NCBI RefSeq assembly: GCF_002571385.2
Contig: NW_019217845.1
Span: forward strand, 289,452-353,451
Source of the DNA: Stylophora pistillata
Lineage: Eukaryota
Direction: 5' to 3'
Length of the DNA: 64,000 nt
Shown here: positions 12,301 through 21,855 of the stretch, one piece after another
Layout of the letters: the number at the start of each line of letters is the position of its first letter
Position numbering within the stretch: position 1 is the first letter of the stretch
Program-made: the position numbers and the translations under genes
The notes under the pieces: generated by a model
Told to the model about the DNA's origin: nothing
Databases searched by the model: none
The model's input: only the letters and a program-made list of their open reading frames with translations

Positions 12301-15135
12301 GTCGGCCTGGGGAGAGCCATTCAGAGACGAGTTCAAACCCAATTTGATACATCAAGGTGAGAATACTGAAGACGTGATTTTTCTACGACATAGGGTCAGT
12401 TGGTTTCATGGACGTAAGGTTTGACACCAAAAGCAACTTTCTTTTTTCATCAGGGAGAGGTATTCTAAGTATGGCAAATTCAGGACAGCATACAAATAAA
12501 TCCCAGTTGTAAGTATCGCTCTTTGAGAAACCTTCTACCTTTTTTTTTCTTGTCAGGAAATCTTGAAACACTGACCAGAAAGCTCGCAACCTATTTGTCA
12601 ATATACCATACATATATTGTCGGATAGTGGGCTCGAACCTAAGTTGAGTTTGCTTGACACTGCACGTGAGTGCAGTGGTACTTGTCGCTTTGAGTGTCTT
12701 TTTTCATAGAGAAGGTGCGAGAGAATAAAACGAAACGGTTGTGTTTATCGAAAGAAAACCTGAGATTGTGACTTCGGAATACTAAACTTCTACTGCCACG
12801 GAGGCATTCCCGGTACTGTTGAAAAAGAACTTTTTAAAAAATGAGAAAACTCATATTCTGATTTGTTTTTCCCAGCCTAGCTTACTTCCTACGTTCATTC
12901 AAAAATTCCTCTATACAAAAGTCTTTTCTTCTTCCTTGTAGCTTTATTACATATCGCTCCTGTCGTCATTTGGATGAAAAACATTCCGTGTTCGGCAGGT
13001 AATTATATCACTGTTTCTTTATCCTGCTGTGGTTGTTTTTGTCGTGTGTGTGTGTGTGTGTTTTTTTTCCATCCGAGGTTAATATCTCGGGGAACTAAGG
13101 ACTTTGATGTTTTATACCATGGTAGACATCCAATTGCGTTCTGAGGTAGCTATTGATTTATTGTTATTTTTTCTGCCTTTAGATTGGTTGGTGGGCTCGA
13201 AACATTAAGCGCTTTGGAAAGAGTTGAAACTGATGAGAAAGATCGACCCAAGGTATCAGTATGTAAAAGAATCAACTAACATTCAAAGAAGTTTAGTCCA
13301 TGACTGAATGTTAAACACGGTTGCTGACTGCTGAACGACGTTACTTGGCTTGGCCTCGCCTCATATAGCATCAATATTTTGACAACTAGTTTATGTGTTT
13401 CGTTTCTCACCCTTACATAATGTAGTCTTGCATCAGGAAGCACACCTTATGTTTCATACCCTGTATGTTTTAGGAAGTGATCAAACTTATCAAGGCCACG
13501 GTGTTTGTGAATCCTTTCGAAGAAGTGGATGCAGTGGTCAGTGGCATTCTTGCGCTTTTTTGAAGAAAATCCTAACATCTAAAACAAAATAATCACAACA
13601 GCCATCCAGTGTTTTCCCTTATTTTATGCACGAAAAAGGTAAAAGAGATTTTAAACCGTTAGAGCTATCCTTTTACCTGTTCAGTGTCCGATTTTAGACA
13701 TTTGTGTCCGATTTTGGACACTAGTGTCCGCTTTCGAACGCCAGTGTTCGATTTTAGACACAAGTATGTGATTTTGGACACTGGTGTTCGATTTTAGACA
13801 CAAGTATGTGATTTTGGACACTAGTGTCCGATTTTAGACACCAGTGTCTCGATTTTGTACACTAGTGTCTGATTGTAGACACTAGTGTTCAGAACAAAGG
13901 GAAATATTACAGAGAGGGATGATGGCTCAAATCACGATTGGCTTTAGTTTTTTATTTGACTGGTCGGGAAAATGCTTTGAAGTTCTTAGACCAATCACAG
14001 GAGGTTAAGTAAACCAAGGTTATCCGGGATTTCGGAAATCGTGTTTATATTATTTTCAGCTTCAAAAAGAGCGAGAGAAAAAGGAAGAAGAAGAAAAACA
14101 ACAGGTAAATTTGGAAAGTGTTTTGTTCCCAACAAGTCCTGGTTTGGTTTATACAGTTTATAATCTCTTGGTCCATGTTGTTTCCAAGTTTTTTTTGTCC
14201 TATCAAAAAAATCGAATGAACGCAGGTATAACTTCAAGCTTAAGTAGAACACTTGGATTTGATTGTTAATTCTCCCCACTAGCATATCTCTTTGTAAAAG
14301 TTATGAGAATTTCGTGTTGGATCACGTTGACAATTTTCACCTGATAAGTTTGAGTATTCTCATTACCTGTTTACTGGATAATGTATGGACATTATAGGGA
14401 GAAGTTACATTTTCATCACTTCTGGGAGTTAAATGGTTAATGTCAACAGCTGATTAAGGATGAAGGTTTCCCAGGTTTGTGCTACAACGAGCGGTAGATG
14501 CTTGTTTGGTAGTCAAACAACTATTGATGATAACAATGGTAACGAAATTAAACACCTGAATAGTGGATTGGAAAATGAACTTTGTTTAGTGATCACTGTA
14601 CAGTTCGTCTACAATTTGTTACTCGAAGCAGATCATAGGAACTATCCTTCTTTTTTTCATGCGTTTAGGAAGAAGCCGCCCGCAAAAAAGAAGCAGCTGC
14701 CACGCCAGCAGAAGCACCGAAGGTTTACCGGTCTGGAGTGGGGAAATATATTAAACAGAAAACAGCCTCAAGGTATGATACGATATATTCGTTTAAAATT
14801 TTGTTCAAAATTAGCTGGTGAGCTTGAGATGTTGTTGAAAAGTAATCATACGTTTAAAACTCAAAATACTCCCATCGAAATGCAAGATTGCGGCTTCTAG
14901 GTTTAGAAAGGAATTAGGAAAGACAATTCTTTGTCTACTTTCGAGAGTATCCAGTATTTCTGGAAGTTGCTTCAGCCTTTATGTTTCTTGCGAGAGACAC
15001 TACCATCGCAGTTCTTTTTATTCAATATTTTTGCCCAATTTTTTCAGGGATGCTGATACCGCTGACCTCACCCCGCAACAATCAAAGAAGAAAATTAAAG
15101 TATCTGGGGGATTCAAAGATTTCAGCTCGTGGTAA
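353..15135 (+). CDS. PPIL2: RING-type/U-box E3 ligase peptidyl-prolyl isomerase-like 2 (Cyp60); 5'-partial, multi-exon, one internal exon missing
   Basis: Hand-spliced GT-AG exons: 353-401, 5483-5545, 5867-5918, 6574-6625, 6716-6807, 7750-7839, [missing exon], 9600-9700, 9835-9885, 10124-10199, 10793-10840, 11277-11335, 11518-11578, 11876-11904, 12066-12099, 12294-12356, 12454-12508, 12942-12998, 13183-13252, 13474-13536, 14060-14104, 14669-14772, 15048-15135 (TAA). Peptides FRRLPFYCCSLSMQPF, NIVPYLKKYGKNPVTGE, YHCPVTFKVF, AHYSTGAVASSFTST, FHRSIKNFMIQGGDPTGTG, LSMANSG, GVGKYI and GFKDFSSW* match the PPIL2 U-box, cyclophilin domain and C-terminus. Exon phases are consistent except at 7839/9600. 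Confidence 0.95.
526..695. mobile_element. small MITE with CAGGG termini (hAT-like)
   Basis: Imperfect 16-bp TIR CAGGGCTcaACACTAA ... TTAGTGTccAGCCCTG. No clean TSD. Confidence 0.5.
830..895 (+). repeat. 66-bp perfect direct repeat, copy 1 (copy 2 at 5194-5259)
   Basis: ctaagctaatggatg...aagttatgaaatggt is identical at both sites. Confidence 0.95.
896..1105 (+). mobile_element. SINE body lacking its tRNA head (same family as 7924-8190)
   Basis: Aligns to the 7990-8190 copy (gtcttaaaataa...ctcggata...agggttaggggtaggagacgttaatttcccacgcac...). Confidence 0.8.
1605..1812. mobile_element. ~200-bp TTAA-ended MITE (piggyBac-like); related copies near 7161-7356, 24971-25166 and 27524-27755
   Basis: Ends resemble ttaaccct...agggttaa. 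Shared internal motifs (aatatcacccctgaatc, ggaaatgatca, aaattctc) recur across the window. Confidence 0.6.
1850..3101 (-). CDS. First three coding exons of an unidentified gene with an acidic N-terminus, antisense inside a PPIL2 intron; 3' part not found
   Basis: Exons 3101-3039 (gccATGG start, MADAGVLDPSDSQTTPRIGEK|gta), 2925-2868 and 2124-1850. All have GT-AG boundaries and compatible phases (0,1,0), giving an open D/E/S-rich peptide. Confidence 0.75.
3390..3425 (+). ncRNA. minimal type I hammerhead ribozyme motif (Penelope-like-element type)
   Basis: ggct-CTGACGA-a-gggc(taac)gctc-GAAA-cg-TC-agct. Contains the CUGANGA and GAAA cores, stem II, a minimal palindromic stem III (ACGT), a GUC cleavage triplet and stem I ggct/agct. 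Confidence 0.75.
3740..4340 (+). mobile_element. degenerate non-LTR retrotransposon 3' end
   Basis: ILGVTFQENCRFSIHI...ANKCLYILRTLRR...LFSALVLPK resembles the post-RT C-terminal region. Frameshifted; ends in an aataaa/(tatt)n tail. Confidence 0.75.
4531..5045 (+). mobile_element. degenerate CR1/L2-group LINE 3' end
   Basis: The frame from 4531 reads LEW...ILMYKTLHGMTPDYL...YRLRN...LPQPRTDYLKRSFLYSGAQLWNNLP...FKSKL*, with two in-frame stops, then a 3' UTR. Confidence 0.8.
5048..5162. repeat. 115-nt palindromic (hairpin) element with GCGAAGC apex
   Basis: 56-position stem symmetric about 5105, with no bulges. Three tandem GA/AG mismatches. Confidence 0.9.
5194..5259 (+). repeat. 66-bp perfect direct repeat, copy 2
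   Basis: Identical to 830-895. Confidence 0.95.
6830..7160. other. assembly gap
   Basis: N run. Confidence 1.
7871..7920 (+). repeat. 10-bp tandem repeat (TAAGAACTGC)x5
   Basis: Directly visible; abuts the SINE head. Confidence 0.95.
7924..8190 (+). mobile_element. tRNA-derived SINE
   Basis: Head has an A-box (TAGCTCAATGG) and a B-box-like GGTCCAAGCCC. The body recurs at 896-1105, 8193-8375 (inverted) and 9171-9295. Confidence 0.8.
8193..8375 (-). mobile_element. inverted SINE body copy forming a ~180-bp inverted repeat with 7994-8176
   Basis: Near-identical reverse complement, with a 16-nt spacer at 8177-8192. Confidence 0.9.
8376..8777 (-). pseudogene. 3'-truncated LicD/fukutin-family nucleotidyltransferase-fold membrane protein fragment
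   Basis: N-terminal TM helix followed by HWLMYGSVFGALRVQGPLPWDYDVDIG (LicD GS-x-GA-x-R...PWDxDxD motif). Preceded by a splice acceptor at 8787-8788; the ORF runs into SINE sequence at ~8375. Confidence 0.8.
9171..9295 (+). mobile_element. partial SINE body copy
   Basis: Near-identical to 8071-8190. Confidence 0.85.
13683..13890. repeat. 20-bp minisatellite (~10 copies, consensus CTAGTGTCCGATTTTAGACA) in a PPIL2 intron
   Basis: Period of 20 is visible; units are internally palindromic. Confidence 0.9.
14266..14440. mobile_element. TTAA-ended MITE, second family; related copies near 28449-28667 and 45014-45230
   Basis: Shared core gagaattt(g/c)gtgtt(a/g)gatca...ctggataatgta...ggagaagttacat...atcacttctgggagttaaa(t/g)ggttaa. 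Confidence 0.6.
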
Positions 15136-15192
15136 CACAAGGATGGCAGGTAATTCCGGTAAAGACATTCCACTCGTTCGTCCGTAAATTAA

Positions 15193-15973: not shown

Positions 15974-18196
15974 TTAAAAGAAGTACATTTGCTTTCCTGC
16001 TGCTAGTGGAAAGTCGGGGAGTCAGGTTTTTGCAGTCTTTTGCTATCAAACCTTGCAAGACTGGGAGCCATGGAACATAAACCGGAAGTGAAGCTTACCA
16101 CGTCCATCAGGGTGGTTACTTTGAGAGAGAGCTGTTCAACGGCAAAAAATCTTAACCAGCCAAATTTAATTACAAGTTATGGGTGGTTTGACGGTCTATA
16201 TCCTCAAAGAAATTTTAGTGGCTTCTTTTGATAGGATGTGTGAACCAGCCTCAAAATAAACTGCTGTTTACGTCTGTTCGCTTTGTACAACTGTAAAACA
16301 GTATTTTTTCTTTAAATCTTGCCAATTTGATGATTAACTTTTGTCAGTTGTGAATACTCAAGCTGTACAAAGCTATATGTAATAGTGCTCTTACTGTACA
16401 ACTTGTGATTATTACTTAAGTACTATCAATTTTTTGTTACATGCTATGACAAGTATTCCATTCAGATTCATCTCCCAAGTCGTGCCAGGTCAATAGCTAA
16501 CTGGCCATCGTTCAAAAGATCTTGCAAAAAGTAATCGTATGTCTCCATAAGTTGGATGTTTTTTTTTTTTTAGTTTTTTTCGTTTGGCCTGCATGCTAAG
16601 AAAGCAGCCTTCGGGAAAGGTGATCGGTTGCGGTCCCTATTGCTGATTATTTCCTCCCAATCCTTTATTCATCTCTTCACGTATAATTTAATTCGAAGCG
16701 GAGAAGTCGATTTCAGGCGAAGATTTATTTTTAAACACTTTTGAGATTATTTTTCGGTTGAAAAGGCGCGATGGTTCGTGAAATGCTCTCTAGACGCGTC
16801 TTAAACGCAGTATATACTCAGACATCACGCGCGCAAGATTTGAGTCTCCCCAACACCCACCATGCTGTTTTTCAATACTGTAAGTCAGTCACCCGAAAGC
16901 TTATCTTAGACTTATATTTTTAAAATAAAAAACCTTAACAAGATGTCAATGAAAAGTTGACTATTTATAAGCGTTCTGTGTTCAAGTCAGCTAGAGGAAT
17001 ATCGTTATTTCACCTCATTTTACATTTCGTGATCAAGCGGCCAACTTCACAGTGACGTGTGTCACGTCCTCTAAGCCACAAAATGTAAATTTCGCAGAAC
17101 GTGGAATTGATTTAATTTATCTCGTGACTGAAACTGAATTTATTTACACAAAACCGTGTAGTTTATAACTTCATTTTTTTCAGTGAAGCGTGTCAGATTT
17201 AAAAGGATTGTGAGAGATGATTGCAGTAAAACTCTTCGAGAAATAAAAATAGCGTGCACTGAATCACGTATTTACAACAGTGCAAAAAAGAAACAAAACA
17301 AAACGCTGGTTGATGAAGACATTGAATCCTTTCTACTTTAGTTCCTTCGAATGTTACTGTTTTAACATTAAAAAAATTCTTTAAGAATGAGGAAAAGCGT
17401 AATCCAAATTAAATTGTGTGACTTTTTCAGGCCAGGAATACTATGATCACTGTTGCGTGTATAAGGAACTTTTTTTTAAGGGGATTCATGTTTTGAATCA
17501 CTCTAAAAGTCACGCTACTGTCACAACGGGAAATGTCACGTAGACACCAGATATTTTCGTACAATTTTTTTTCGTTAACTTTCATGTCAAACGTATTTTT
17601 AATTGACCCTTTTTTAAAAGTATGGGTTAAAATCAAGGAAATTAATCGAATATGATTCATCCTTTGGTGAAATAAACGCAAATGCGTTTTCGTGATTAAA
17701 AAATCGTGTCGGTTTCGTGATAAACCCGCGGAAAACATCTCAGTTTTGAAGGGGTTGCTTTAGTATGCAAATTACTCGTTTACTTTAAATGTATGGCTCT
17801 GAGGAATAAAAGTTTCAGATTACCTCACGCATGAACGAGTCAACCTCGTTCGACTTCTGGGCATCAACTTCCGAAGAAACCATGGAACAGTTGACGGTAA
17901 AATACCACATTTTTTGTTGCTTTATATCCAGGAAATCGTTGTATAAAACGGTGTTTATTCGAATTGCGAGCTGAATACTCGGATTTTTCCTCCAACTTTG
18001 AGTTAACCTTGCAATCGCAAATTCGGCTCGAAATTATTCTGAATTTTTCCCTCGGAAATTACTCGGAAATTGTTAAACCTTTGTAATGAATATGACTTCC
18101 TGGTTAATCTGGTTCTCAATTTTTCTCTTAAAAGAAGTTGTCGTTTTGCTGTTTTGAAAATATTTCTCGTTCACTACTAAATTTCATATGTATTTA

Positions 18197-18964
18197 GGTG
18201 GCTGACACAGTTTTTGATACCTGTGTTTCTTTCACCATTTTCTCTAACACCCGTGATCTCTCGGTCGCCAAAACTGGCAGCAAGCAAGTTAACATCCCCA
18301 ATTTTTTTTCGATAGTTAAGCTGACGTATGTGCCGTTGCCATGGTGACATGAATAAATATGAACAGGCCTTTAAAATCGGTTTTGTGTATTTGTAGAAAA
18401 TCTAGTATTTAGATTTTCTTTATAATTTGTATGTAACGATACTCACAAGTTAACACCATTTTGCTGACAATTTAGCTGAGAGATCTTTAATTATCCCTTG
18501 TTGAAGGTTCACTCGATTATCTAGAATTTCCTTCGTTAAAAATTAATTTTTTTCAATACTCCAGTTACTTATTTCTTAAAGTATTTTCGTGCCAAATTTT
18601 GTGGAATTCCAATGAGTGGTTCTCAAGAAATAGGCATATTTCCGAGAAAGCAATTTTCCATTCAATCGCAATTTTTTGACTTAGTACGCATGCGCTGCAT
18701 TTAACAAGGTTCTTTCGGTAACGACGAAAAAGCTGAGAATTGCTGGGTTCTTTGCACAGTTAACTTTTCTTACATGTCTTTGTAATAAAAGATTAAAGCC
18801 CTCAATACACTGCGCCAACTGGAGAAAAGTAGCACAAATAGTGCGAATACGTTTTGAGTAAATAAAGTGATCGCTCTATTGATAGCTCGTTTGTTTTTTG
18901 AAATCCTTGTGCGCGCGCTGAATTGCATCAGCAAAACCGCGCGCGAAAACTGTGTTCAGCCACC
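18197..18964 (-). mobile_element. Kolobok-like MITE, copy 2 (inverted relative to copy 1)
   Basis: Full-length, diverged reverse complement of 15193-15973; ends GCCACC|TTAA. Confidence 0.8.
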
Positions 18965-19141
18965 TTAAATCAGAGTAGTTGAACATAATTGTCACAGAAT
19001 AAAAGAATGTAGTTAGAAGAAAACCAAAATAATTAAATCTGAACCCCTCATTCTATATATTAAAGTGACATAGGAACCCGAAATTGAAACCGTGTTTCAA
19101 AAATTAATGACAAATTTATCTTGTATTGGCATTTCTCTCAG

Positions 19142-19966
19142 CTCCCGACGATAGTTTCTCTCAATGTTGGCGGACATTTCTTCACCACTCGCCTTTCCAC
19201 GCTTTTGAAGGACGAAGGTTCCATGTTAGCTGCCATGTTCAGTGGGCGATACAAAGTTGAAATGGACAAAGAGGGAAGATATTTTATTGATCGTGACGGA
19301 AGATACTTTGGATATATCTTAAATTACTTACGTGACGCGTCACTTCCAAAACCATGCGTTGCGTTACAAGTGTACCGCGAAGCGGATTATTTCCAGTTAG
19401 AGCAACTTGTTCGTGAGCTTGAATGTTATCCATCACTTATCCCACATATTGTTATAAAAGAACAGAAAAGAGACTTAGCAGAAAGTTATCACCATTGGAA
19501 ACGCGTCCTTTTAGAAACTACACAACGAAAATTTCACAAATTTGTCAAATTCGCCGTTGGTCGTGATTGCGTGATAACTGTCACGCGATACGCTTCTAAA
19601 AAGGATTGCAGTCGTAGTGAAGGTGTCTGCAGAAGTTTTATCTCCCTTAGTGACGATACGAAAAATTATCAAAGTCATCAGTTCTTCAGCGTTAACGACA
19701 CTGGAGAGAAATTAGAGTATTACATTGGTTCCCATCTTCCAGCGGTTGATTTTATTGTCCCCAATGAAGAGATATCAGATTGTCATCAGTTTACGTCATT
19801 GGTAGAAAAAGATCTGCGCCTGGAAGGGTTCTGTGTCAGCGGAAGTTTATCGCATGCGTGGAAGTGTGTTCTGTGTGATATGACAGGAACTCTTCACCAA
19901 TTAGCTTTCAAGTGGGTTCTTCCATATCCGAACACGGACAGCGAGAAAATAATGAAACAGTTTTAA
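19142..19966 (+). CDS. BTB/POZ (T1-type) domain protein, KCTD7/KCTD14-like; main coding exon
   Basis: Acceptor ctcag|19142. IVSLNVGGHFFTTRLSTL...SMLAAMFSGR...GRYFIDRDG...ILNYLR...VYREADYF is a KCTD BTB domain, and the C-terminus resembles KCTD7/14. Start exon is uncertain: phase-0 candidates are 17882-17896 (MEQLT|gt) and 16862-16879 (MLFFNT|gtaagt). Confidence 0.88.
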   Translation, partial: LPTIVSLNVGGHFFTTRLSTLLKDEGSMLAAMFSGRYKVEMDKEGRYFIDRDGRYFGYILNYLRDASLPKPCVALQVYREADYFQLEQLVRELECYPSLIPHIVIKEQKRDLAESYHHWKRVLLETTQRKFHKFVKFAVGRDCVITVTRYASKKDCSRSEGVCRSFISLSDDTKNYQSHQFFSVNDTGEKLEYYIGSHLPAVDFIVPNEEISDCHQFTSLVEKDLRLEGFCVSGSLSHAWKCVLCDMTGTLHQLAFKWVLPYPNTDSEKIMKQF

Positions 19967-20468
19967 AGAATATTTTTCAATAATGACTTTAAGGAGCAAC
20001 ATTTTAAGTTATGCAAACAAGGACATCTTCAGAACGCTAAACCATTTTATTTTGCTTGATTCCGTTAAAGAACTAAGTGTGGAAAACTTTGAAGGATTTT
20101 AATCCTTAAAGCTTATATGCATAAGTTTGCTAGCTGGTTCCAATTGTAATTTTCAGTGCCACGGAAAATGTAAGCACTAATTTTTTAGGCCTGATTTCCA
20201 CCTCTCGATTTCTACCTCAATAACAGAAGCAGTTTGACTATCTTGCTACTTAGCTATCTCTTTTGAGATCAATCTCGTTTTCAGAGCCTGGGTTCCATTT
20301 TCCAGCGGGGTAAAAAAAACGAGGACTCTGGCAATATTATCGTTTTGAAATAAGCTAAAAAAATCTCCAGCTCAAACCAGAAAAAAGAAAAAAACAAAAA
20401 CAACCAGCACGATGTCACTCCTCGCTGCGGTAGTCTGACAGGCTCAAACTTGCCCAATCGGTTACCCA

Positions 20469-20477
20469 ACCGGAAGT
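20469..20477 (+). promoter_or_regulatory. ETS-type motif ACCGGAAGT in the putative promoter of the YqaJ-like gene
   Basis: Motif match with a nearby CCAAT (20455). A candidate 5'-UTR intron follows at 20508-20597. Confidence 0.35.
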
Positions 20478-20715
20478 AAAAGCTACATTTCTCCAAGTAG
20501 GGGTCGGGTGAGTGGAAGGATAAGAAGTAAATATTCTAAATCTTTGAAATGGTCTCTAATATAAAGCGAAACAAAATTCAGTAACTTGTGCTTGCAGGTT
20601 TTTAATATGCTATCTTGGTTCAAAGATTTATTGCTTTGATTTCCCAAGTTTCGCCTTACCTTACCCCTCCCCTGGAAGTGAAACATTTTGTTGCGCGAAA
20701 GCGCGATATATAAAC

Positions 20716-21855
20716 ATGATAATTTTCCGAAGCCGACACAAACGTCGAAACAGCAATATGGCAAGCGTAGGGAGCGTCTGTTCTCGACGGAAACTCGTAA
20801 TTTTTGCAAGCGAATTAGCCAGTGCCATTGGACGGCATAGATATCAATCCAGAGAAGAAACATTTCAGCGAGTTTGGCTTCGATCGCATCAGCAATCATT
20901 CGTTTTCGCGTTTGCTTTGAGGTTCCAAAGAGACGTTCGTCCGATCCTGGCAGGTTCAGAGGAATTGTTGATTCAGTTTCCATCTTTGGAAAAAGAAGAC
21001 GACATCGTCGATTTCGCTACCGTTGTAAGAAAGGTGATCTGTGACATGTCTTTCAGAAGATTGTATGGGCAGATTCTGAATTTTTTGAGAGAAAAGTTGT
21101 TGAAAAACAACAAAGAAGAACAAATCCTCGTGTCAGCAAAAGTGATCGAAGAAGTTCGAACTGAGGTGAAGACACTTTGTGAGAACGAAGAAAAACTCGT
21201 GGAATCTGCTGTGAAAGAAATTTGTGAGAAACAAGGACTCAACACGAAAGAAGTTGTCAAAGCAGTGGAGTCCAGAATTACTAAGGATCGCGGAACAATA
21301 TTAGAAGGCAGAGCTGTGCAAGAGTTTGAGAAAGCGAAAGGGATCGAAATCGAACGTCCGGTCGCACCCCATCTGTTCTACAGGGATATGGAGTACAACG
21401 GAGTACAGTGGAGTGTATGTGGTAAAGTGGATGCCGAGACAGAAGATAGCGTTATTGAAGTTAAAAACAGAAGAAACCGATTTATGTGCCCAGAGTATGA
21501 TTATATACAGCTCCAAACATACTTATTCATAAGGAGTAAGTCCAAGGGTGTCTTGCTGGAGAGATTGAAAGGTGAAAACAAAGAAACCTGTTTTGAATTT
21601 GATGATGAGCTCTGGGAAGAAGTGACCAATGACTTAGCTGAGTTTGTTGCTGAACTGTCAGATGCCATGAGCATGAGTAAAGAGGCATTGTATGGGTATT
21701 CATCACCAAGGAAACGAGGTCATGTTCAAGTGGGAGAAGCTATCGAAAAAGTTGGTAGGCAGGCAACAGATGAAGCGCAAGTGAAGAAGATTGCTGTGGA
21801 AAGAGTGGAAGAAGCTACCAATGTTACTGAGATACAGGATAATAATAATAATTAG
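20716..21855 (+). CDS. intronless YqaJ/lambda-exonuclease-like PD-(D/E)XK nuclease
   Basis: 379-aa ORF (the ATG at 20758 has better Kozak context). Motifs in order: IFASELASAIG, RGTILEGRAVQEFE, CGKVD (motif II), IEVKNR (motif III ExK), YIQLQTYL (QxxxY). Confidence 0.8.
   Translation: MIIFRSRHKRRNSNMASVGSVCSRRKLVIFASELASAIGRHRYQSREETFQRVWLRSHQQSFVFAFALRFQRDVRPILAGSEELLIQFPSLEKEDDIVDFATVVRKVICDMSFRRLYGQILNFLREKLLKNNKEEQILVSAKVIEEVRTEVKTLCENEEKLVESAVKEICEKQGLNTKEVVKAVESRITKDRGTILEGRAVQEFEKAKGIEIERPVAPHLFYRDMEYNGVQWSVCGKVDAETEDSVIEVKNRRNRFMCPEYDYIQLQTYLFIRSKSKGVLLERLKGENKETCFEFDDELWEEVTNDLAEFVAELSDAMSMSKEALYGYSSPRKRGHVQVGEAIEKVGRQATDEAQVKKIAVERVEEATNVTEIQDNNNN

Follow-up and report, generated by a model that had tools for sequence, protein, structure and literature searches.

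The window analysed here, a 64,000-nucleotide stretch of the Stylophora pistillata genome, contains an intronless gene for a predicted nuclease behind the last exon of a KCTD/BTB gene. The ORF listing and translation give a 379-codon frame that is open throughout (20716–21855, +), as an earlier note on this DNA, an intact single-exon ORF of 379 aa, had it. The features discussed below are as follows.

19142–19966 (+): last coding exon of the upstream neighbour, a KCTD/BTB gene (BTB_2, E 3e-18), with a splice acceptor
20436–20455 (no strand assigned): candidate p53-family response element, 2 × RRRCWWGYYY, with 2 mismatches in the window and a perfect second half-site
20470–20477 (+): ETS-type motif CCGGAAGT, with a matching GCGGAAGT at that place in L044 and L045 only
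20693–20700 (−): E2F-type site TTTCGCGC; the corresponding position in orthologues carries TTTCCCGC on the + strand
20707–20714 (+): TATA box, 51 bases before Met15
20716–20757 (+): upstream extension of 14 codons, likely untranslated, with a polymorphic stop at codon 5; not kept in orthologues
20758–21855 (+): coding sequence from the likely start Met15; 365 aa, intronless, predicted PD-(D/E)XK nuclease with a lambda-exonuclease/Cas4-like fold
20884–21246 (+): helical insert in the model, residues 57–177, evolving faster than the core
21304–21522 (+): predicted active-site segment with E197, D239, E248, K250, R252, Q265 and Y269, from invariance in 73 of 73 homologues and the fold match
21703–21717 (+): SPRKR at the start of the disordered tail, a predicted CDK site and nuclear-localisation-like motif
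23904–24090 (−): likely last exon of the downstream neighbour, a GDPD-family gene (weak GDPD_2 match, E 8e-4, under the cut-off)

Gene model and neighbours

The start at 20716 did not survive comparison. Orthologous proteins begin at the equivalent of Met15 in the protein alignment, the TATA box lies too near the first ATG, and C20728T converts codon 5 to TGA in 4 of 7 runs (X8, X13, X14 and the DNA-like X16). The TATA box occupies the same place in orthologues, so the transcript would start 3′ of the first ATG; because the stop allele sits at codon 5, the true start is most likely Met15 (20758), with a product of 365 aa. Among the variants listed, at least nine besides C20728T fall in the frame (3 synonymous and 6 missense, none at catalytic residues), and the two indels, of 9 and 3 bases, are both within the tail. 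With 4 of 4 candidates scored, the only match in the species' own genome is the window itself; the gene has no second copy there.

The neighbours had been described as ordinary animal genes, which holds for the BTB/KCTD exon (BTB_2, E 3e-18) but less clearly for the GDPD gene, where the match is weak (E 8e-4). A likely short first KCTD exon (17882–17896; MEQLT, GT donor) matches the start of a Pocillopora verrucosa KCTD21-like protein. Elsewhere in the window, an intronic high-copy stretch holds a LicD-family fragment (8349–8774, −); there are also a reverse-transcriptase fragment (30953–31822, −) and, by eye, a tandem repeat with a unit of about 300 bases (29850–30500).

Fold and active site

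An AlphaFold2 model built from 26 homologues has a mean pLDDT of 79.5, with most of the core above 90; residues 1–23 and 330–379 are disordered in it, and the tail has pLDDT below 50. Comparing the structure, as the earlier note had proposed, matches the model to the lambda-exonuclease-type nuclease fold. The best solved structure is LHK-Exo (Z 14.0, rmsd 3.1, 172 aligned residues), followed by Haemophilus phage exonuclease (Z 12.4), lambda exonuclease and mimivirus R354 (11.5 each) and Cas4 SSO0001 (11.1); MGME1, Exo5 and herpes alkaline nuclease have the same fold (Z 8.7–9.5). SSO0001 was the top match in one Foldseek search (E 3.5e-5), and in a second the best full-length fold matches were viral (E 1e-10 to 2e-9). 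The long helical insert is also there in the model, helical over residues 57–177.

The catalytic motifs noted previously are all present: GKVD at 236–239, EVK at 248–250 and QxxxY at 265–269. All 73 aligned homologues, and likewise the rows of a 145-row alignment, share G193, E197, D239, E248, K250, R252, Q265 and Y269 without exception, and the active-site segment aligns, weakly, with the motifs of SSO0001 Cas4 and LHK-Exo (E 0.028 and 0.3). An E-bearing helix is followed by D...ExK and then QxxxY, the layout of the lambda-exonuclease/RecB-like branch of PD-(D/E)XK enzymes. Because of the modelled fold match and the invariant catalytic residues, the reading of the protein as a nuclease of this class and branch holds, with its activity predicted.

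The family label 'YqaJ' is not borne out for the protein itself, which has no match to YqaJ (PF09588) at E ≤ 1 and misses the Pfam cut-off of 22 bits; 6 of 26 aligned family members do match it (best E 6e-5), and the viral relatives in loci L002 and L010 exceed the cut-off with 27.4 and 31.6 bits. Pfam and PHROGs return no significant family for the protein, and a sequence search of the PDB finds at best SSO0001 (E 0.37). Motif II is GKVD, unlike the ASPDG type that we take to be usual for YqaJ; G236 and D239 are conserved across the family, and the motif resembles that of Cas4/RecB-like enzymes.

The protein has likenesses on two sides. Lambda exonuclease, LHK-Exo and R354 (PF09588) are its best solved-structure matches (Z 11.5–14.0 over 167–172 residues), and its ASE motif presumably resembles the ITASE of lambda exonuclease, but it differs in having no Pfam YqaJ match, GKVD in place of ASPDG and a 120-residue helical insert. 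The GRxD and QxxxY motifs of the RecB-like enzymes Cas4 SSO0001, Exo5 and MGME1 align with it, and NCBI labels the Exaiptasia orthologue 'Cas4', but the coral family has neither a CRISPR context nor the conserved four-cysteine iron–sulfur set of Cas4 and Exo5: cysteine positions disagree across the seven family members listed, one of which (P0107) has only two. A homotrimer prediction (three copies of residues 22–330, alignment unused), aimed at the ring-shaped trimer of the YqaJ family, scored 0.17 against a mark of 0.32 and weighs neither for nor against such a trimer. In the tail, SPRKR is what we take to be a CDK site and a nuclear-localisation-like motif; [ST]Px[KR] occurs there in 17 of the 23 cnidarian-clade proteins checked and is missing in 6.

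Orthologues and selection

A protein search gave 40 matches among 5,710 candidates, 38 of them at 38–98% identity and then two stramenopile proteins at 26–27%. Named orthologues come from Pocillopora verrucosa, Oculina (72%), Desmophyllum (72%), Exaiptasia (38%), Actinostola and Nematostella, and further rows that we call cnidarian are labelled by similarity; on these sequences, both Scleractinia and Actiniaria have orthologues of the gene. Of 20 metagenome loci, eight are coral-like. The coding region is intact in all 7 coral loci readable from the start codon.

The dN/dS comparison that had been suggested indicates purifying selection. By the Nei–Gojobori method, the window against six loci gives 0.12–0.18 overall, 0.05–0.07 in the nuclease core and 0.14–0.33 in the helical insert, at a dS of 1.1–1.7 that is near saturation (L049 is saturated); three closer pairs give 0.22–0.28. 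Synteny across corals, also suggested, is borne out in part: the KCTD neighbour lies upstream in L043, L044 and L045, but there is no KCTD match in L046 (3.4 kb of flank) or L048 (6.6 kb), and the flanks of L047, L049 and L050 are too short. On the GDPD side, the coral loci offer less than 1.7 kb of downstream flank.

Several observations concern the wider set of proteins. Anemone-type proteins split into two subclades (P0039 and P0103; P0038 and P0271), possibly paralogues, and a contig of 98,898 bases carries two Nematostella records that are 92% alike. The 90% cluster of P0003 mixes the nuclease with the neighbouring KCTD protein, either a clustering artefact or a fused gene call somewhere. 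P0102 and P0247, 301-aa proteins without the tail on contigs of 12.6 kb, group with the cnidarian proteins (starred), and knowing their host would put a date on the gene's entry.

Transcription

Twenty runs from 10 studies contain this stretch, with RNA on record for only 2. Contigs from X8, X2 and X3 carry at least 14 GT..AG joints upstream and then run unbroken through the KCTD exon and the nuclease frame; because of these joints we treat the three runs as RNA. The possibility that the RNA-type runs are DNA is ruled out by their splice joints. X14 yields a single contig from 19141 to 22128, and the contigs of X13 and X1 begin at 19139, where the DNA-like run X16 continues. The RNA check proposed earlier thus finds contigs of RNA-type runs over the nuclease frame and, since they run through it, the frame is transcribed, whether from its own promoter or as KCTD read-through, between which contigs cannot tell.

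The candidate 5′-UTR intron at 20508–20597 fares worse. In all six RNA-type runs the main contigs read straight across it without splicing, it is not among the joints listed (15 of 72 and 15 of 21), and the aligned orthologues L043, L046 and L048 do not share its acceptor; as assembled contigs lose minor forms, we call it unsupported. Over 17046–18139, which likely holds the first KCTD exon, no RNA cover is seen in contigs, which cannot prove absence.

Further upstream, a multi-exon cyclophilin gene (7748–15149), PPIL2-like by eye, has a stop codon that precedes its final donor by 14 bases, and in the X8, X2 and X3 contigs it is joined by splicing to the KCTD exon (at 19142). A single contig path covers three reading frames, cyclophilin, KCTD and nuclease, as read-through or an operon-like unit.

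A conserved upstream layout

The frame is preceded by p53-type, E2F-type and TATA motifs that recur in coral loci; the comparison is of coral loci, with no anemone promoter among them. The p53-type motif, spotted by eye after the loci were fetched, consists of two copies of RRRCWWGYYY, which we take to be the p53-family consensus. It lies about 320 bases before the start in the window, at −313 to −357 across six loci and at −165 in L049, whose protein is only 46% identical. In all seven coral loci with sufficient flank, the second half-site is perfect; L047, with only 151 bases of flank, and L050, with none, fall outside this set. Mismatches number 2 in the window, L046 and L048, 1 in L043 and 0 in L044, L045 and L049. 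Because L044 nearly duplicates L045 and L046 nearly duplicates L048, the number of independent lineages is about five.

Among 1,000 simulated flanks per locus, an equal match arose 0, 0, 0, 0, 10, 11 and 22 times. The 398 Mb of the species' own genome contain 56 perfect elements, a rate of about 6e-5 per 400 bases, against 23 for a reversed control. A third half-site is present in L044 and L045, and in L048 the element still accompanies the nuclease gene though no KCTD match lies within 6.6 kb upstream. On its own, the element of the window does not exceed chance expectation over the 64 kb (4 found against 2.15 expected). One of its mismatches falls inside the CWWG core, and A20440G, an allele present in 5 of 7 runs, further weakens the first half-site, which may therefore be decaying in S. 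pistillata. The genome has three p53-family loci, and a perfect p53-type element at G000:C316:55836-55855 lies about 4 kb upstream of a p53-family gene, which could reflect self-regulation.

Closer to the gene, a site of what we take to be the E2F consensus is found between −65 and −87 in 7 of 8 loci (expected by chance in 10–25 per 1000 per locus), and the TATA box lies at −51 to −62 in 7 of 8 and at −80 in the eighth. The host-like ETS/CCAAT promoter of the earlier note is retained only for its ETS-type half, CCGGAAGT at 20470–20477; the CCAAT at 20454–20458 lies partly within the end of the p53-type element, and 5 of 5 aligned orthologues lack it there. The conserved p53-type/E2F-type/TATA layout is stronger evidence of a promoter than CCAAT and a UTR intron, and host wiring through conserved upstream motifs is well supported. 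As a candidate p53-family target, the gene has a conserved element near its promoter that is weak in the window's own species.

Viral relatives

The giant-virus homologues that the earlier note had recollected do exist, in IMG/VR loci, ESM Atlas clusters and Foldseek matches. The nearest ESM Atlas clusters are 84–100% viral, mostly Nucleocytoviricota, for the coral protein and an oomycete protein alike, and scans of IMG/VR gave family matches in 41 of 86, 2 of 207 and 8 of 21 loci. Most of the nine viral-contig loci whose neighbours were scanned have giant-virus markers beside the homologue, such as major capsid proteins, topoisomerase II, L1R, D5 primase, RNA polymerase, VLTF3 or PolB. Nucleocytoviricota proteins with EVKNR, YqaJ-like or PD-(D/E)XK (iridovirus A0A068QKG1, entomopoxvirus A0A916P1H1 and IMG/VR loci L002–L042 and L078–L087), share with the coral protein the full-length fold including the helical insert, the N-terminal ASE motif, G[RK]xD, ExKxR and QxxxY. 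They differ from it in sequence (about 25–30% identity), in the disordered SPRKR tail of the coral protein and in the setting of the coral gene, a host locus behind p53-, E2F- and TATA-type motifs. With coral-tuned queries, viral-contig scans gave 0 of 7, 0 of 60 and the 2 of 207 just mentioned; none of 50,697 phage records matched, and a prokaryote-genome scan with coral-tuned patterns only gave 0 of 101, so distant prokaryotic members may exist.

The family extends to other eukaryotes. Its profile matches 959 representatives at E ≤ 0.001, and a conserved family of about 290 aa occurs in many oomycete genera and the diatom Thalassiosira; the Phytophthora sojae hypothetical protein PHYSODRAFT_488301 belongs to the same family (E 1e-68 with profile A1). 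A 662-aa homologue fused to an R3H domain lies between syntaxin and ERGIC genes on a contig of 67% GC (L058:6666-8651) and would be a further, eukaryote-looking member.

The phylogeny called for by the earlier note was built on 183 core columns as two careful trees, the second of 54 rows; 23 rows were dropped from the first, 10 as long branches (L058 among them) and 13 as near-copies or surplus, and long branches led us to discard a 233-row FastTree and a 73-row quick tree. The cnidarian clade, P0102 included, is starred (100/93 and 97/90), and the oomycete/diatom family is starred as a clade together with rows that lack species names. Both trees place viral-contig proteins on the branches nearest the corals, unstarred (95/78, 93/84; 92/68), and differ in the sister group of the coral clade. 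A clade joining cnidarian and stramenopile rows costs only 1.3 and 2.7 log-likelihood units when forced and is not rejected by AU tests (p 0.47 and 0.41), for a stramenopile group picked after the first tree that includes six rows without species names.

Origin of the gene

Single copy, under purifying selection, covered by RNA and with host promoter motifs, this is a fixed host gene. The earlier proposal of a domesticated viral nuclease is supported as far as it describes a gene that the host has kept for long, to judge by its copy number, orthologues, selection, RNA cover and conserved promoter, and whose nuclease family is abundant in Nucleocytoviricota; capture from a virus stays a hypothesis, given the oomycete/diatom family and a joint clade that the AU tests do not reject (p 0.47 and 0.41). 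We lean slightly towards a viral origin, by acquisition from a giant virus before stony corals and anemones split. Octocoral mtMutS is a precedent, a giant-virus DNA-repair gene fixed in an anthozoan lineage (PMC8438181); it differs in being mitochondrial, of the MutS family and of viral origin confirmed by the authors of that paper, whereas the coral nuclease gene is nuclear.

Two other histories would lead to the same host function. Hexacorals, stramenopiles and some protists may have kept an ancient eukaryotic nuclease family that most animals lost and that viruses took from their hosts. We consider this unlikely. In its favour are the conserved and starred oomycete/diatom clade, the AU results and the homologue on the eukaryote-looking contig L058; hexacorals also kept MSH1, a gene absent from other cnidarians and from bilaterians (PMC8438181). 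Against it, no named match appeared outside Hexacorallia among animals, fungi and choanoflagellates (in up to about 8,000 candidates per search, most matches being nameless), neither careful tree unites the two eukaryotic groups, and each of the 7 coral loci that could be read from its start has an unbroken coding region. That the anthozoan ancestor received the gene from an alga or another protist is less probable still. Algal-derived DNA-repair genes are described in anthozoans (PMC4878875) and the AU tests permit a cnidarian–stramenopile sister pair, but the stramenopile proteins P0040 and P0041 are only 24–25% identical to the coral protein and form a separate clade, the best trees set cnidarian and protist proteins apart, and no dinoflagellate-named match was seen.

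Of the sources weighed, the most remote is a YqaJ gene from an ISL2EU-type DNA transposon, whether domesticated or mobile to this day. ISL2EU elements encode YqaJ (PMC4482050), and the genome holds at least 150 repeat-borne YqaJ matches, many with open frames and identical scores. The nuclease gene is single copy and outside those 150 rows; at the 12 best repeat-borne loci profiles A1 and A3 reach at best E 0.3, and four of the 12 have GASPD..E[VI]KCP against GKVD..EVKNR here. As the earlier note had observed, no TIRs lie nearby: none of the 25 longest of 68 inverted pairs over 17000–26000 forms TIR-like arms around the gene, whose upstream neighbour is conserved in 3 loci. With its single copy, no kinship to repeat-borne YqaJ and no TIR-like arms, a transposon gene is largely refuted. 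The identical-score open-frame domains themselves suggest recently active YqaJ-carrying transposons in this genome.

Proposed function

Taken together, we give a probability of about one half to the following reading: a DNA exonuclease, predicted to depend on metal and likely of giant-virus descent, is likely induced by p53-family and E2F factors and trims nuclear DNA ends, and so likely takes part in the response to DNA damage. UV or similar damage would bring a p53/p63-type factor to the element at about −320, and E2F would tie expression to S phase. Transcription would start just 3′ of the TATA box and translation at Met15, and the SPRKR tail would bring the protein to the nucleus under CDK control. 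There, E197, D239, E248 and K250 would bind Mg2+ and DNA ends would be digested 5′ to 3′, the direction in which lambda exonuclease, Cas4 SSO0001 and Exo5 digest them, so that 3′ overhangs would remain for homology-directed repair. In Nematostella, the nvp63 protein binds the vertebrate p53 consensus, and UV raises this binding in polyp lysates (PMC1964547).

The same p53-induced nuclease, of whatever origin, could instead destroy DNA, in apoptotic clearance or against invading viral DNA, or serve mitochondrial DNA. We hold this to be rather unlikely. It would fit the UV-induced germ-cell death driven by nvp63 (PMC1964547) and the shared fold of MGME1, Exo5 and herpes alkaline nuclease (Z 8.7–9.5), and in P0041 and P0191 of the stramenopile clade the long N-terminal leaders resemble, by eye, targeting peptides; but the coral protein has only about 12 residues before its first strand and a tail motif of nuclear type, and an E2F-type site would better suit a gene of replication or repair than one of DNA destruction.

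More specifically, a giant-virus exonuclease may have been captured by the hexacoral ancestor and rewired as a direct p53/p63 and E2F target for end-resection under UV stress, a scenario we hold tentatively, as one with the odds somewhat against it. Sunlit corals undergo heavy UV and oxidative DNA damage, and to our knowledge little is known of the targets switched on by coral p53-family proteins; no paper on such targets was found by title. No paper on the nuclease gene was found by title or abstract start, and the orthologue accessions are absent from main texts, though the supplements of virus–eukaryote transfer screens may list the family. Table 1 of PMC4878875 names no such nuclease, with three entries given only as 'predicted' or 'hypothetical protein' and unmatched.

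If capture and rewiring are correct, the gene would be among the first candidate native p53 targets in a non-bilaterian animal, and a response element before a lineage-restricted nuclease makes a direct test in Nematostella possible. The sequences describe an old gene of hexacorals, from an uncharacterised nuclease family rich in giant-virus members, with p53-, E2F- and TATA-type motifs conserved upstream. If its viral origin fails, what stands is an uncharacterised nuclease family common to corals, oomycetes and giant viruses; if it holds, the gene would be the nuclear counterpart of octocoral mtMutS, a giant-virus DNA enzyme in a core animal stress circuit.
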